Below are positions 1 through 7,282 of a DNA stretch of 36,551 bases, in pieces; position 1 is the stretch's first letter, and every line of letters starts with the position of its first letter. A program made the position numbers and the translations under genes. The stretch is from Escherichia coli. Lineage in GTDB: Bacteria; Pseudomonadota; Gammaproteobacteria; Enterobacterales; Enterobacteriaceae. Below the pieces are notes generated by a model. That model had not been told where the DNA came from. It was given only the letters and a program-made list of their open reading frames with translations, and did not search any database. The DNA lies in the NCBI RefSeq assembly GCF_003334765.1, contig NZ_QOWT01000037.1; one strand, given 5' to 3'.

Positions 1-928
1 TAAGCGTAACCGACAGGTTCTCCTTCATACCATATTAAATTTTTCCAGGTATTGCCGCTGCCTTATTTCGTCCCATAAAGGAAAACTCATCTGGGTTTCT
101 GACAAATACGCGAAACTCACAGCCCCTCAATATCAACCACACGTTGTAAGCCGGTAATACCTGAAAATCAGCCTATTACCGCCCACGCCTCCGGCACCAT
201 TCCCTTTTGATTTCGAATTCTTTGTTGTCGCTATACCGCTTAATGTTCCCGGTCCTCCGGTGCAGATAACACCGGACTTATCGTAGCGCTGGCTAAAAGT
301 TCAGGTGACCAGAAGGAAGCAGGAACACGATCGTAAAGTTTGCGGTCAGTTCCGTCAGTCGGTGGGCAACCGCAGAGTTACGGGCTTCCAGGTCCACAGG
401 AGTGAGTCTATAACGCGTGTGAAAAATCATTTTTTCTGGCGTTGACAGAACACATTACAGGCTGCCACTTACCCGGTGTCCCGCAATACAGCCTTAGTGT
501 TCCGTTATCGGGGATCCGGACGCACCGCAACAACCGGGGAAGTATTTCTGGTTTAGAGCTGTGTCAAGAGGGATTTCTCAGCCCCTCACTCACCGGCTCA
601 GTCTCAGAGCAGGAGCATTAATACGCTCAGTTCATGTCTTATACAGGAATGGGCACAGGGGGAGCTGGCGTGTCACTGCTGATTTTACGCATCAGCGTTC
701 ATGTATTTGCACTCTGATACATGAACGATTCACAGCGCTCTGTTACCGGAGAGATTTACTCTCTTAGCTTACTCTGGCAAATCCTTTACGTTACTCTCTG
801 ATGACTTCTTATATTTATAATACCAATCAGACAGCCTTATCCCATCGGTGATACCGAAGCCGGTCTGCGCGCCGGCTGACCCGTCATCGTTAAACTATCA
901 TTCACCGATTTTCTGTGAGGATTTTATC

Positions 929-1297
929 GTGTCAGACACACTTTCCGGGACAACGCATCCCGATGACAATGACGACCATCCCTGGTGGGGACTACCCTGC
1001 ACAGTGACGCCCTGTTTCGGCGCCCGTCTGGTGCAGGAGGGTAACCGCCTGCATTACCTTGCCGACCGCGCCGGTATCAGAGGCCTGTTCAGCGATGCAG
1101 ATGCGTACCACCTGGACCAGGCCTTTCCGCTGCTGATGAAACAACTGGAACTCATGCTCACCAGCGGTGAACTGAATCCCCGCCATCAGCATACCGTCAC
1201 GCTGTATGCAAAAGGTCTGACCTGCAAAGCTGACACTCTCGGTAGCGGTGGTTACGTTTATCTGGCTGTTTATCCGACGCCCGAAACGAAAAAGTAA
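929..1297 (+). CDS. CbeA/YeeU/YfjZ-family antitoxin of a type IV toxin-antitoxin pair
   Basis: ORF 848..1297 translation contains [37 protein letters not shown]..., typical of the YeeU/CbeA family (about 122 aa). In-frame GTG at 929 gives VSDTLSGTT... and a 122-aa product; the ATG at 848 would add a 27-aa extension. Paralog cannot be assigned. Confidence 0.8.
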
Positions 1298-1386
1298 ACC
1301 ACCGGAATAACCTTCTGCTCCGGCCTGGTGCTTTCACCACGCCACTTTTCCATTTTTCATCTCTGCATATCAGGAAAACCTTCAGT

Positions 1387-1761
1387 ATGAAAACATTACC
1401 CGATACACACGTACGGGAGGCATCGAGCTGCCCGTCTCCCGTCACCATCTGGCAGACTCTGCTCTCCCGACTACTGGGCCAGCATTACGGCCTTACACTG
1501 AATGACACACCGTTCGCCGATGAACGTGTGATTGAGCAGCATATTGAAGCTGGCATTTCACTGTGTGATGCGGTGAATTTTCTCGTGGAAAAATACGCGC
1601 TGGTGCGTACCGACCAGCCGGGATTCAGCACTTGTCCCCGCTCTCAGTTAATAAACAGTATTGATATCCTCCGGGCTCGCAGGGCGACCGGCCTGATGAC
1701 CCGCGACAATTACAGAACGGTAAATAACATTACCCTGGGTAAGCATCCGGAGAAACGATGA
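1387..1761 (+). CDS. CbtA/YeeV/YpjF/YkfI-family toxin (cytoskeleton-targeting, inhibits FtsZ/MreB)
   Basis: 124-aa [11 protein letters not shown]...[52 protein letters not shown]... matches the CbtA toxin family as recalled; sits directly downstream of the antitoxin gene. Confidence 0.85.
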
Positions 1762-2246
1762 AACTTTCCCTGATGCTGGAAGCCGACAGAATTAATGTGC
1801 AGGCACTGAACATGGGGCGAATTGTCGTTGACGTCGATGGTGTTAATCTCACTGAACTGATTAACAAGGTCGCTGAAAACGGTTATTCACTCCGCGTGGT
1901 GGAGGAATCCGACCAACAGTCAACCTGCACACTACCACCGTTTGCAACCCTTGCCGGCATACGCTGCAGTACCGCACATATCACGGAAAAGGATAACGCC
2001 TGGCTGTACTCGCTGTCGCATCAGACCAGTGACGTTGGTGAATCAGAATGGATTCATTTCACAGGTAGCGGATATCTGTTACGTACCGATGCGTGGTCAT
2101 ATCCGGTTCTGCGGCTTAAACGCCTGGGGCTGTCAAAAACGTTCCGTCGTCTGGTTATCACACTTACCCGACGTTATGGCGTCAGTCTCATTCATCTGGA
2201 TGCCAGCGCTGAATGCCTGCCGGGTTTACCCACTTTCAACTGGTAA
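1758..2246 (+). CDS. YeeW-like cryptic-prophage protein
   Basis: 162-aa ORF whose start overlaps the toxin stop (ATGA at 1758-1761); position and sequence are consistent with the yeeW-type gene that follows cbtA in CP4-like elements. Confidence 0.6.
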
Positions 2247-2257
2247 CCAGGAACAAC

Positions 2258-2455
2258 ATGAAATCATTAACCACGGAAACCGCACTGGATATTCTGATTG
2301 CGTGGCTGCAGGACAATATCGACTGCGAATCGGGAATTATCTTTGACAACAATGAGGATAAAACGGATTCAGCAGCACTGTTGCCCTGTATCGAACAGGC
2401 CAGAGAGGATATCCGTACCCTGCGCCAACTGCAGCTTCAGCACCAGAACCGGTGA
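2258..2455 (+). CDS. small hypothetical prophage-associated protein (65 aa)
   Basis: ATG at 2258 preceded by aggaac; product MKSLTTETALDILIAWLQDNIDCESG...; the longer ORF-track start at 2213 overlaps the upstream gene. Family not assigned. Confidence 0.4.
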   Translation: MKSLTTETALDILIAWLQDNIDCESGIIFDNNEDKTDSAALLPCIEQAREDIRTLRQLQLQHQNR

Positions 2456-2932
2456 GTCTTACTCACCAGACTTCATTCCACTGACGCCAGCCTGAACAGG
2501 GCTGGCATTTTCATTTATCTGCAAAAAGGAATATCGATTATGTCTGATATCACAGCCTACCGTCCGGAAGTGGTCAACGAGAATACGGACGTTATCTGCT
2601 CAACCAGCATCCGCCGCATTCTGGCTGTACGAAAGAGTTCACTGCTGCAAATCGACACAATTATCCGGCATCAAGTGAGCGATATCAGTTAACAGATATA
2701 GATGGAGAAGATGCTTTTATCCGGATTGGTTCTATCGCGATGGTGCGAGTACTACTTGATGCAATGAAGCCTGTCGAGGAAGATGACGAGTAACAGAGCT
2801 CGGTATCTCAATCAGGAGCTGATTGTCCTGGTTCGATGCCGAAAACCAGTGATTTTTCGTGTTGGTATCTGTGTTGGTATAAGATGATATTGTTTATTAT
2901 TAACAATTTTAAATCATGAGGTTAAGTCACAT

Positions 2933-2970
2933 GTTTGAGTCCGGCCTTCGCACCTTCGCACCTTCGCACC
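2933..2970. repeat. tRNA-Leu (leuX) 3'-end-like segment followed by 3 tandem copies of cttcgcac; probable island att remnant
   Basis: tttGAGTCCGGCCTTCGCACC resembles the T-arm/acceptor end of tRNA-Leu(CAA) as I recall it (GGTTCGAGTCCGGCCTTCGGCACCA); the 8-mer cttcgcac repeats at 2946-2953, 2954-2961 and 2962-2969. Confidence 0.5.
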
Positions 2971-3172
2971 ATCGGAACATCAATAGACATCAACGGACGT
3001 TTTTTTATGACTGAAATCCGCGCCACACAAGGCTTTTCGCTATTTTTCGCTCAACCTAAGTCAACCTACATCAACTTACTGATGTGGATACAGCTACAGC
3101 TGCGGCTATACCCCGATTCGATAATGTTTGTACCCACACAAAACCCTTGAAAGGCTACAAGGCTGAAATTGT

Positions 3173-3657
3173 CTAAACCATAGAGATGATTTTTATGATC
3201 CAGTCTTTCTCTTGTTGAGATAGTTCCAGTTTGCTCACTCGTGTTAAGAAGGTATTGATCACCTGAACATCCGAATTGGTGAGCCTATTTAATAGAGCGG
3301 GTGGTATACCTTTACTAACAATCGCTTTGCGGTGACTTTCGTAGTTTTTATTACTCATTGTTGATCCTAAAAAATCATTGTATGGCGGCATTGATCGTTT
3401 CCAGCAACCTTTACTTACTCACTTCGAACTGCATCCTCGTAGACAGTTCCACTACAATAATCGAAAAGGCGCGGATGTCCATTCAGGTATCCCGCTAATA
3501 CGTATAGCAATAACAATGGCTTATGCGGCGCGCGCTGTTCACCCTTGTGCCAGATTTTTATATTGGCAATTGCCTGCTGTAGCGATTTACTGGAAGCTAT
3601 TGATATCCCTGGCAGTGAAATAATTGCGATCATGCTCGCAAATTTTCTGCTGTTCAA
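3173..3657 (-). pseudogene. frameshifted gene of unknown function
   Basis: Two same-strand ORFs (3415..3657 and 3173..3391). The downstream frame is open from 3418, immediately after the upstream stop at 3415-3417, so a single frameshift in the ttacttactc tract would fuse them into a protein of about 160 aa. Confidence 0.35.
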
Positions 3658-3736
3658 GCCTGCAAGTGAAGATATATTACCTTGATCTCATTTGTTTTTT
3701 TGCTGCCTGTTCTGAGAACGTATAAGGACATTCTCC

Positions 3737-4387
3737 ATGAATAAACTCCCTGATCATCTTCCGCGGCGGTATATCATCGAAGCTATCCATTTATGGGATG
3801 CGGGAGAAACTCATCAGTTCCAGCCTGCGCGGTTGTATGAGATTGAATATCATGGCCGACGTTACCCCTCGAAGGCGATTGCTGGCATCGCAGCGACATT
3901 GATGACGGGGACGCAATTTACCCCTGCGGATTTCACCGGCGGAATAAAATCTAAATGTGTCAAGCTACTCATAGAGCAGGGATTTCATATTCATCTGGAT
4001 AAAGCCGCTGCGGCTCCCATAGCCGACGTTCTGTTCCCGGATGAGTTGCCGTCGCAGGAGACATACCTTGAAGGTGCGGCGATAAAGGTGACAGTAAACC
4101 GCTATGAACGCGATAAAAAGGCCCGAGATAAAGCGGTCGAACATCATGGATGCCAGTGCAACGTATGCGGTGTTGATCTGGTGAAGATCTATGGTGATAT
4201 CGCTGAAGGCTTTATCCATGTGCATCACCTGGTGCCGCTGTCAGCCATTAAAGAGGATTACCAGCTGGATCCAGTTAATGATTTGCTGCCTGTGTACCCT
4301 AATTGCCATGCGATGTTGCACCGACGCAAACCACCGTTTACGCCGGGGCAGTTAAAAGCGCTGATGGATGCGAATAAATCAAATTAA
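3737..4387 (+). CDS. HNH endonuclease, McrA-like C-terminal nuclease domain with an unassigned ~100-aa N-terminal domain
   Basis: 216-aa ORF; the C-terminus has HHGCQCNVCG...IHVHHLVPLS...YPNCHAMLH, a classic HNH (beta-beta-alpha-Me) motif resembling the McrA nuclease domain. aggaca lies upstream of the ATG. Confidence 0.7.
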   Translation: MNKLPDHLPRRYIIEAIHLWDAGETHQFQPARLYEIEYHGRRYPSKAIAGIAATLMTGTQFTPADFTGGIKSKCVKLLIEQGFHIHLDKAAAAPIADVLFPDELPSQETYLEGAAIKVTVNRYERDKKARDKAVEHHGCQCNVCGVDLVKIYGDIAEGFIHVHHLVPLSAIKEDYQLDPVNDLLPVYPNCHAMLHRRKPPFTPGQLKALMDANKSN

Positions 4388-4394
4388 TGAACGC

Positions 4395-5375
4395 TCACCT
4401 TTCGCGCCAAAACTGCAAAATTGCTTCTACAAACTTGTCAGAAATAATCCCCCGACGGGCTGCCGTGCTGAAATGACTGCTTCGCAGTGCCGTCGTCCAG
4501 TTCTCCGGTGACCGGTACGCTGAACCGTAATATCCCGTGCTTAAATCGTCCGGGTCTTCATCAGGCGCGTTCGTCAGTCCTCTTTCACCTTGTTGCTGGA
4601 AGTCGACGAAAATAATATTGGCTAAAACATTATTTTGATAATTGCCATAAATAACTTCATACGCATGAGGGAAATTTTCTTTCCAGTACCAGGTGGTATC
4701 GCCGCAAAACCACGGTGCGTCAGTAATATTATTAAGCTGAGAATGGTATTGTTTTAGATCCCTACGAAAGGCTTCAACCATATGATTAAAGTGTTGAGGG
4801 TGTGACGCGTAGTCACTGGTCATTAAGTCAAATTCGCCTTGCATCCAGCATACGCCGAGGAATTTGTTATGCGGATTTTTTGCCAGTGCGGCTCGCGTTC
4901 TGCTGACTAAATCCTGGTATAGCGGAGTATCCGTTCCCCAACGACAAGCATCATGGCTGGCTCCGTGCCGTTCTGAATATGTCCCTTCGCTGCCCGCGGT
5001 AAAAGCCGATCCGCCACGGCAACACGGAACGATGAGAACCCCTGCATTATCAGGAATAAAGGGCAGTAATTTCCGTGCTATATGCAGTGCCTGGCCAACG
5101 GTGCCGTACTGTGTTTGATGATTCGTTGCCAGAGGATGGTGATAACCCTGCATATCCTGAACATCGTGTGGGCAGTGAGTCAGTGGAATAATGTCGTTAA
5201 AGTGACATGACGGGCCTCCGGGATGCGTATGCGCAAATCTCGCTAATTGTTTAATTCTGGGATGAGGCGCATCTTCCCTGTCCGGTAATGGCAGTCCTTC
5301 GCCATACGCCATGGCATTAGACTGACCAGCAACGGTAAGAATATAGTAATAATCAGGCGATATTATTGCGTTCAT
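4395..5375 (-). CDS. nanS: 9-O-acetyl-N-acetylneuraminate esterase
   Basis: ORF 4395..5402 matches NanS/YjhS; start placed at the internal ATG (MNAIISPDYYYILTVAGQSNA...) for a 326-aa product. Confidence 0.9.
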   Translation of the reverse strand: MNAIISPDYYYILTVAGQSNAMAYGEGLPLPDREDAPHPRIKQLARFAHTHPGGPSCHFNDIIPLTHCPHDVQDMQGYHHPLATNHQTQYGTVGQALHIARKLLPFIPDNAGVLIVPCCRGGSAFTAGSEGTYSERHGASHDACRWGTDTPLYQDLVSRTRAALAKNPHNKFLGVCWMQGEFDLMTSDYASHPQHFNHMVEAFRRDLKQYHSQLNNITDAPWFCGDTTWYWKENFPHAYEVIYGNYQNNVLANIIFVDFQQQGERGLTNAPDEDPDDLSTGYYGSAYRSPENWTTALRSSHFSTAARRGIISDKFVEAILQFWRER

Positions 5376-5439
5376 ATAAATTTCGCGTAATTGAAATGAC
5401 AAATTGATAGCAGGGCCCCTTTACCGGGGCCCTGAAGCG

Positions 5440-6546
5440 TTAGTTTTGTACTGTGACTTTATTATCCTTCACAGAAATTAAAACTGAATCCATCACTGCT
5501 TTGCCGCCTGCAGTTTCACCGCCAATAATTAATAAACTATTATTCCAGGGCAATGATACTCCGTAGGCCCGACCTTGCGATAATTCACCCGATTTATCCC
5601 ATTTCCCGTTATACCAAAGATGAATATCAGCGCTATATGATTTTTTCAGGCCTTCATGCGCATAGTTCTTACCGTTCTGGTAATTTTCTCGTGAACCTTT
5701 GAATCCGGCCCCTCCAGCAAATATAAGAGAATCATTGCTTATCCCCGCAAAACCGCCAGCGACGCCATCTGGTGATGAGACGGGATCAAGCTTATTCCAT
5801 TTTAAATTATCACCGGTGAAGTCAAGTTCAAATACGGCATCCGTTCGCAATCCTGGTTTGGCTTCGCCATTAATAAGCCAGGTTTTATCACCTTTATTCA
5901 CAACCGCCGCACCAGCCGTTCCGTACCAGGGAGATTCGCCAGCGTAACTCCATTGCTGTGTTGAGGGATCAAAAGACAACAGAAACTTATTGAAGAAATA
6001 ATCTTCTGCTTTTTTGTCAAAATAGTAGGCGTTGATTTTATCTATAGCGGTTGAATCTTTTCCAGCTTCGTTGAGATCTTCAAAATAGCCATTGAAGATA
6101 TTCTGGTTAACACCGCCAGTAACATAAGCCTTGCCGTTGTGTACAAAAGTCACATGGCCCGCCATGCCCATCGGCGCGTGCGACATCAATTTAACCCAGC
6201 TATTGGTTTTGGGGTTGTATTTGTGTACGTCATTAAATACCTGAGTCAAGCCCTCGCTGTTTTTGCCAATGCCGCCAAACACATACAGATTGCCATCAAT
6301 AAATGCAGAGGTTGCTTGATCTCTCGGTCCGCCAGGGAATGCAGCTAACGCTGTCCATCTTTTATCTTTGGCCTGTGTATCCAGCTTGTACCATGCCGTA
6401 CCTGCGCTACCTAAACCAATGTAGACAGTGTCGTTATCAATTGCTCCGGTACCACTTTTAAATGGCACAGGAGTTTCCGGTAATACAGACGCGTTTGCGG
6501 CAAATGAAGCCATTATGATAGTAAGCGCCGTTATTGTTTTATTCAT
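5440..6546 (-). CDS. nanM: N-acetylneuraminate mutarotase (Kelch-repeat periplasmic protein)
   Basis: ORF 5440..6654 matches NanM/YjhT; start placed at MNKTITALTIIMASFAANA (signal peptide) for 368 aa. Confidence 0.9.
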   Translation of the reverse strand: MNKTITALTIIMASFAANASVLPETPVPFKSGTGAIDNDTVYIGLGSAGTAWYKLDTQAKDKRWTALAAFPGGPRDQATSAFIDGNLYVFGGIGKNSEGLTQVFNDVHKYNPKTNSWVKLMSHAPMGMAGHVTFVHNGKAYVTGGVNQNIFNGYFEDLNEAGKDSTAIDKINAYYFDKKAEDYFFNKFLLSFDPSTQQWSYAGESPWYGTAGAAVVNKGDKTWLINGEAKPGLRTDAVFELDFTGDNLKWNKLDPVSSPDGVAGGFAGISNDSLIFAGGAGFKGSRENYQNGKNYAHEGLKKSYSADIHLWYNGKWDKSGELSQGRAYGVSLPWNNSLLIIGGETAGGKAVMDSVLISVKDNKVTVQN

Positions 6547-6565
6547 TGTGACTGTCTCCTGTCTA

Positions 6566-7282
6566 CTACAGTTTAAATGACACACCAATGCGATAACTGT
6601 TTTCCGATAAATTATCTCTGCCGTTGTAAACACCCTGACGGTCAAGGTAGTCATATTCTATGTATGGCGTAATATCGGGCGTCATATGGTATTGTAGAAC
6701 AAATGCATTTTCCGTCGCCCATTTCTTATGGTTTGCATAGCGATAATCGTTCTGTTTACTGTATAGCGTCGTTTGCCATGCGAAGGTGAAATCACTATTA
6801 ATATGGTAAGTGACATATCCATCCCAACGATGAACGTTATCACGAGACATATCACCAGATAAGTCTTGTTGTCGGTAAGCTTTCCAGTCGTAACGATAGC
6901 GAATGCCAAAATTAAGATCTTTTGTCGCGTCCCAGGACAGTTTTACGTAGGGTCCGTAGCGTGTGCCATTGCTGCTAAAATGCGTTAACATTCCCGGGCG
7001 CACCGTCCATTGATCATCAAGTTTAATCGCGTAATTAACTTCAACCTGAACATCATTGAGTGCGGCATTTTCCTTTTTATTATCATGAATGGTATTCCAG
7101 GTATTACTTTCCATGCTTGCCCACCATCCATTTTGCCATCCCTCACTGACTTTGAGTCGAGTCTCATAGGCGTGGCTTCCACTACGATATCCACCACGTA
7201 CGTCCAGTGTCGCAGCCTGAGAAATTAATGGGGACGAAAAGCACAGTAATAATACGCTAGAAAGTATTTTAGCCTTTTTCAT
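6566..7282 (-). CDS. nanC: N-acetylneuraminic acid outer-membrane channel (KdgM family)
   Basis: ORF 6566..7291 matches NanC/YjhA (MKKAKILSSVLLLCFSSPLISQAATLDVRGGYRSG...); ATG at 7282 chosen, GTG at 7291 is an alternative. Confidence 0.9.
   Translation of the reverse strand: MKKAKILSSVLLLCFSSPLISQAATLDVRGGYRSGSHAYETRLKVSEGWQNGWWASMESNTWNTIHDNKKENAALNDVQVEVNYAIKLDDQWTVRPGMLTHFSSNGTRYGPYVKLSWDATKDLNFGIRYRYDWKAYRQQDLSGDMSRDNVHRWDGYVTYHINSDFTFAWQTTLYSKQNDYRYANHKKWATENAFVLQYHMTPDITPYIEYDYLDRQGVYNGRDNLSENSYRIGVSFKL

Follow-up and report, generated by a model that had tools for sequence, protein, structure and literature searches.

A probable deletion scar joining a DUF4942 gene to an XRE-family regulator gene at the end of a leuX-associated island in Escherichia coli

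Gene content and overlapping frames at the island end

The window (i.e., the whole stretch of E. coli DNA analyzed here, 36,551 nucleotides) carries at 848-2455 a typical CP4-57/CP4-44-like module, all of whose genes are intact: a YeeU/CbeA-family antitoxin (848-1297, or from a shorter start), a CbtA-family toxin (1387-1761), DUF5983 (1758-2246) and DUF957 (2258-2455). DUF957 is followed by a terminator-like hairpin (2486-2506, + strand; GCCAGCC-TGAAC-AGGGCTGGC with a T-rich tail), and the two overlapping reading frames that concern us here come next, also on the + strand. The first is an ATG-initiated ORF of 50 codons (2540-2692, with its TAA at 2690-2692) that is preceded by a Shine-Dalgarno-like aaagga (2525-2530) and translates as MSDITAYRPEVVNENTDVICSTSIRRILAVRKSSLLQIDTIIRHQVSDIS, beginning MSDITAYRPEVVNENTDV and ending HQVSDIS. 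The second lies at -1 with respect to the ATG ORF; it is bounded on its 5' side by a TGA (2545-2547) and runs without stops from 2548 to a TAA at 2791-2793, with a translation ending in ...DIDGEDAFIRIGSIAMVRVLLDAMKPVEEDDE. The earliest ATG, GTG or TTG in this frame is the ATG at 2740, and no ORF of at least 30 aa was reported in it by the ORF listing. The ATG ORF, its aaagga and the start-less second frame are all present as the first-pass annotation had described them.

The same annotation had placed the frames at the end of an island, and this location is borne out by a degenerate copy of the 3' end of the leuX tRNA gene at 2933-2972 (+ strand), an attR-like right boundary of the island that lies ca. 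140 nt past the frames. The copy combines a 14-nt exact match (GAGTCCGGCCTTCG) to the leuX of E. coli O26:H11 11368 with flanking similarity, and the octamer CCTTCGCA is repeated three times in tandem within it (2945-2968). In O26:H11 11368, leuX and then the integrase are found ca. 59 kb upstream of the corresponding site, at the far end of a composite island of about that length in which the fec operon, Ag43 and cbeA/cbtA follow. A tRNA scan of the window returned no tRNA, because leuX lies outside it.

Remnants of a DUF4942 gene and of an XRE-family regulator gene

The first frame is, for most of its length, the 5' remnant of a DUF4942 gene (2540-2670, + strand), i.e., codons 1-43, start codon included, plus two bases of codon 44. 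By BLASTP, its product is 78% identical to residues 1-49 of an intact 280-aa DUF4942 protein (E 3.5e-22), and at the DNA level window positions 2200-2670 share 93.6% identity with the island of E. coli O157:H7, where the intact 280-aa gene is found (L010, 2541-3383), the match ceasing at 2670. The same limit was obtained when 2500-2690 was searched by megablast, hundreds of DUF4942-bearing genomes matching only up to query position 171 (window position 2670), and in a multiple alignment the stub and the intact genes diverge directly past ...TTATCCGGCA. The aaagga is part of the same heritage, as the upstream region is identical in the DUF4942 genes of O157 and CFT073; the hairpin sequence likewise recurs upstream of intact DUF4942 genes, and cbtA–DUF5983–DUF957 precede the stub as they do in O157, CFT073 and others. 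Compared with the DUF4942 proteins of CP4-57/CP4-44-like islands of Enterobacteriaceae (e.g., WP_001280481.1 of E. coli O157:H7), which are encoded by the gene after cbeA/cbtA–DUF5983–DUF957, the stub agrees in its upstream region, Shine-Dalgarno sequence, start codon, first 43 residues and position after DUF957, but those 43 residues are all that is left of ca. 280. Pfam domain PF13708 occupies residues 87-276 of the intact O157 protein and is wholly absent from a stub that ends at residue 43. The N-terminal homology and the gene neighborhood are thus those of the family while the domain is lacking, and we regard the sequence as a pseudogene stub and not as a member protein. Incidental mentions are all that we found on DUF4942 in the literature.

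The second frame carries at its end a remnant of a different kind. Its residues 40-81 (2665-2790) are 76% identical to residues 224-265 of a regulator of E. coli PEC408 (BLASTP, E 2.8e-20), and the stretch 2665-2793 (+ strand) corresponds to those residues plus the stop codon, i.e., to the 3' end of the gene for an XRE-family (HTH_3) regulator. A protein search with the 42-codon tail retrieved only fragments of at most 72 aa and evidently missed the full-length family; several of these fragments (from Enterobacter and metagenomes) reach further upstream as ...LNAFFETLDGEPETTDRY.... One contig (L011) presents the order cbeA–cbtA–DUF4942–RHH antitoxin–ParE–HTH_3 protein, where the HTH_3 gene overlaps at its end with a small ORF, and the small ORF and the HTH_3 piece, joined into a second query, retrieved a large family of 265-aa XRE/HTH_3 proteins with up to 96% identity and 99% coverage to that query. 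These regulators are full-length and widespread in Enterobacteriaceae (Salmonella, Citrobacter, Serratia, Klebsiella, Enterobacter, Cronobacter and others). On the L011 contig itself, which is a Logan assembly of a locus distinct from that of the window, the 265-aa regulator (5375-6180) is split into ORFs of 215 and 59 aa through what looks like a 1-nt frameshift at about codon 208, either a genuine frameshift or an assembly error.

The 265-aa regulators (e.g., WP_000940052.1 of PEC408, WP_001531269.1 of ZH063, and P0027-P0065 from Salmonella, Citrobacter and Klebsiella) are encoded in leuX-type islands by the gene that immediately precedes attR, and the window frame aligns with them only from PASSERYQLTD... 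to the C-terminus. The remnant has in common with them the 42 C-terminal residues, in which the D-GEDAF-RIGS-AMV motif is invariant and the end is acidic, and a position just inside an attR-like leuX repeat; an attR-like motif also follows the regulator gene in L011 and in an Enterobacter asburiae contig (L012). Across 11 aligned sequences, 19 columns of the tail are invariant, and the openness of the last 42 codons of the second frame reflects a genuine conserved coding sequence. Residues 1-223 have been deleted, and with them the DNA-binding HTH_3 domain (PF01381, at about residues 1-60 in P0027), so that the C-terminal motif and the place beside the leuX repeat speak for membership in a family whose N-terminal domain the remnant lacks. 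The tail allele of the window (…ERYQLTDIDGEDAF…; …NAFFDTLESEPESIERYQLTDIDGEDAF…) and the intact E. coli copies share ca. 76% identity. No intact regulator with this allele was found: in a megablast search of all complete E. coli genomes the query 2680-2960 matched remnants only, the allele occurs as remnants in E. coli and E. asburiae, and among the GTDB genomes, taken one per species, an exact-pattern scan recovered just two mis-binned MAG contigs with the same joint. NCBIfam and PADLOC scans of both stubs gave nothing meaningful.

The two frames match unrelated families and hence have two different origins. The remaining, upstream part of the second frame (2548-2664, + strand) is simply the -1 frame of the DUF4942 stub, non-coding in every relative and open by chance. 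Its 39 codons (residues 1-39) have no similarity to DUF4942 or to the regulator family in BLASTP searches, the degree of chance involved is mild, as 5.8% of codon-shuffled 5' parts are stop-free too, and in the intact DUF4942 allele of the O157 type the same -1 frame also lacks stops for 43 codons.

The joint and the undeleted arrangement

The homology to DUF4942 genes extends to 2670 and that to the regulator begins at 2665, which places the crossover within a 6-nt microhomology, CCGG(C/A)A (2665-2670, + strand), that reads CCGGCA in the window. On the DUF4942 side the corresponding bases are CCGGCA or CCGACA, and on the regulator side they are CCGGAA, the native E. asburiae sequence; the crossover can be placed between 2669 and 2671. 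In the E. asburiae contig L012 the remnant of this tail allele is longer, and the contig supplies the native regulator-side sequence across the breakpoint, its similarity to the window (86.9% identity) setting in exactly at 2665. The alignment of the joint reads ...TTATCCG(G/A)CAACTGG on the DUF4942 side, ...GAGCCGGAATCAATAGAGCG on the regulator side and ...TTATCCGGCATCAAGTGAGCG in the window. Where an indel between the frames had been suspected, the alignment with intact homologues instead reveals the junction of a two-gene deletion, and a crossover at such a motif is typical of microhomology-mediated illegitimate recombination.

The undeleted arrangement is found in 88 complete E. coli genomes, in which an intact block DUF4942–CopG–RelE/ParE–HTH regulator is present. 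In PEC408 (L014) this block occupies the same chromosomal site (DUF4942 at 4501-5334, then CopG and ParE, and the regulator at 6043-6840), and the flank that follows is that of the window: a remnant of a phosphorothioated-DNA (PT-DNA) endonuclease, an HNH endonuclease, nanS' (a sialate O-acetylesterase pseudogene), nanM and nanC. Window positions 2945-3600 are 97.9% identical to the PEC408 flank, and the last 91 nt of the PEC408 regulator are 82% identical to 2701-2791. Set against PEC408 coordinates, the window is missing ca. 2.1 kb, i.e., DUF4942 from codon 45 to the end, CopG/ParE and regulator codons 1-223. In such intact relatives the two genes are separate and up to ca. 0.7 kb apart, with the toxin-antitoxin pair between them.

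With an undeleted reference at the same locus and sharp homology breaks at a microhomology, we consider that the region is very probably a deletion scar, in which the 5' stub of a DUF4942 gene is fused to the 3' stub of a downstream, co-oriented XRE regulator gene and neither is functional any longer. Microhomology-mediated illegitimate recombination, probably in a single event, would have joined codon 43/44 of DUF4942 to codon 224 of the regulator, removing the intervening DNA and ca. five sixths of either gene. With a PEC408-like ancestor, the CopG/ParE toxin-antitoxin pair would have gone too (ca. 2.1 kb in total), and the scar would record the loss of this pair together with that of the XRE regulator at the island end. 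Since the joint does not preserve the reading frame, that of DUF4942 continues for 22 nt into regulator DNA (2671-2692, + strand), where it picks up (H)QVSDIS before the TAA, and the regulator frame stays open. The DUF4942 start would in this way come to open an ORF of 50 codons, and the last 42 codons of the regulator, lying in the -1 frame and happening to be open back through the stub, would give the locus its look of two overlapping frames.

The size of the deletion depends on the ancestor. The stub allele is O157-type and comes from islands with DUF5983 and DUF957; it differs from the regulator-linked allele, to the point that the PEC408 DUF4942 gene has no detectable DNA similarity to the stub, and islands of the PEC408 type are without DUF5983 and DUF957. 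What follows intact DUF4942 alleles of the window type is a tRNA, or ParD/ParE with the integrase of the next element, and not the regulator. Given a stub allele that is not regulator-linked and intact copies with other neighbors, a PEC408-like ancestor and a deletion of ca. 2.1 kb are best taken as provisional. One could thus imagine that the joint formed between tandem elements, a DUF4942-terminated CP4-like island lying beside a leuX-type element that ended in the XRE regulator, and that a larger deletion, possibly of tens of kb, took the boundary together with the bulk of the second element. Both the ends of the window-type islands (before a tRNA, or before ParD/ParE and a foreign integrase) and the dissimilarity of the regulator-linked allele are in keeping with such an origin, which would leave the nature of the scar unchanged. 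However, both genes do occur ca. 0.7 kb apart within one island at this exact site, which makes a small deletion more parsimonious, and the alleles of these islands are visibly reshuffled by recombination, so that the allele mismatch is weak evidence; we therefore regard an origin from tandem elements as rather unlikely, if conceivable.

Distribution, further decay and other readings of the frames

The scar is common. At least 80% of a 441-nt stretch spanning the joint (2460-2900) was recovered in 1367 of the 5426 complete E. coli genomes, and this stretch is 100% identical to the window in many of them, e.g., in O26:H11 11368. It is also already known, in that RefSeq carries two partial pseudogenes here: PGAP annotates a 'DUF4942 domain-containing protein, missing C-terminus' (window 2540-2689) and a 'helix-turn-helix transcriptional regulator, missing N-terminus' (window 2665-2793), both downstream of the cbeA/cbtA toxin-antitoxin pair, DUF5983 and DUF957. 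In other strains the region has decayed further. IS2 is inserted in the DUF4942 stub in one (L003) and IS1203 just past the joint in another (L009), a second deletion, at a TTAT microhomology, has brought DUF5983 up against the joint (L005), and in a fourth everything upstream of window position 2791 is gone (L004). Such added IS insertions and secondary deletions are what one would expect of neutral DNA.

On the identical joint, several stub haplotypes are found that are 83-100% identical to one another (L006, L007, L008, L009 and L015 compared with 2500-2670), one of them with an in-frame deletion of 6 nt. The tail is at least 95% identical to that of the window in 1542 of 1621 matching genomes. 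As far as can be judged from these alignments, the variety of stub haplotypes is best explained by an old scar that would since have undergone recombination or gene conversion with paralogous islands.

The persistence of the 50-codon chimeric ORF raises the question of whether it is translated into a small protein with a function, be it new or retained, in which case its product would consist of the N-terminal 43 residues of DUF4942 and six new ones. The native Shine-Dalgarno-like sequence and ATG are kept, none of the six full-length scar haplotypes examined interrupts the ORF (83-100% nucleotide identity, the one with the 6-nt deletion included), and in one strain PGAP has placed a 'hypothetical protein' of 52 aa there. 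However, the ORF sits directly after the terminator-like hairpin, with no promoter-like site between 2486-2506 and the stub, its product retains nothing of PF13708, it is disrupted by IS2 or deleted in other strains, and it is flagged as a pseudogene by PGAP in nearly all genomes. Its 5' variation, moreover, mirrors that of intact DUF4942 alleles, so that gene conversion from functional paralogues explains why it is open, and openness in six haplotypes fits neutrality plus recombination. We consider a functional small protein very unlikely, and that this ORF, present in about a quarter of complete E. coli genomes, is an expressed, de novo-like microprotein under selection appears even less plausible.

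The first-pass annotation had read the two frames as one frameshifted remnant gene or as a case of programmed frameshifting. A single gene broken by a frameshifting indel would indeed present same-strand overlapping frames (here with an 8-nt offset) of which only the first has a start, but this reading is exceedingly improbable. The frames match unrelated families, DUF4942 residues 1-49 in one case and regulator residues 224-265 in the other, and reciprocal BLASTP, in the manner of the BLASTX comparison that had been proposed as a check on whether both hit one protein, detected no cross-similarity, neither between the first ORF and the regulator nor between the second frame and DUF4942. Residues 1-39 of the second frame have no homologue at all, and the only proteins that correspond to this frame are ORF calls on scars, of at most 72 aa. 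In a search of 5.8 billion proteins none spans both frames save two such ORF calls (P0002 and P0006), and the annotation had itself named the want of a spanning protein as the outcome that would count against a single gene. We reject a single frameshifted gene, as the frames are not collinear with any one intact protein. Of the earlier reading, decayed coding sequence at the island end holds, but it stems from two genes, the start of DUF4942 and the end of the regulator.

Programmed -1 ribosomal frameshifting that would make a DUF4942-N::regulator-C fusion has a next to negligible probability and is rejected as well, for although the second frame stands at -1 and has no stop across the whole overlap, a scan of 2540-2793 revealed no X_XXY_YYZ heptamer, no homopolymer of at least five and no known shift motif, no Rfam family (frameshift elements included) was found in the whole window, the upstream part of the second frame is non-coding in relatives, and the two-frame layout is not a conserved gene architecture, the intact homologues being two complete genes and the arrangement a recent deletion accident. 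The likeness to frameshifted pseudogenes and to genes that do use programmed -1 frameshifting, e.g., those of IS3-family transposases and dnaX, is superficial: there too the frames overlap on the same strand and the second is start-less, but they belong to one protein and hold a slippery heptamer in the overlap, whereas the frames of the window have different origins and no slippery site.

A deletion scar of this kind represents ordinary decay at the end of an island associated with leuX and carries little biological weight. It nevertheless makes a cautionary case, as same-strand overlapping frames may come from a deletion that fuses two genes, besides an indel or programmed frameshifting, and the identical joint, at the frequency given above, is a convenient lineage marker.

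Further observations concern the surroundings of the scar. From 852 to 6900 the window is 99.3% identical to O26:H11 11368 (42 mismatches), and 1-851 is not collinear with it in megablast comparisons, which indicates a related but different strain or island variant. The two GTDB MAG contigs mentioned above are labeled Collinsella sp. and Lachnospiraceae (L015 and L016), and they are 88% and 94% identical, respectively, to the island region including the scar; they are almost certainly mis-binned contigs of Enterobacteriaceae. Just outside the island, a remnant of a phosphorothioated-DNA-binding (ScoMcrA-like) restriction endonuclease (3451-3600, - strand) adjoins an intact HNH endonuclease (3737-4387, + strand), and in E. 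asburiae (L012, 6323-7192) an intact 289-aa version of the former enzyme immediately follows this regulator tail with its attR-like motif.
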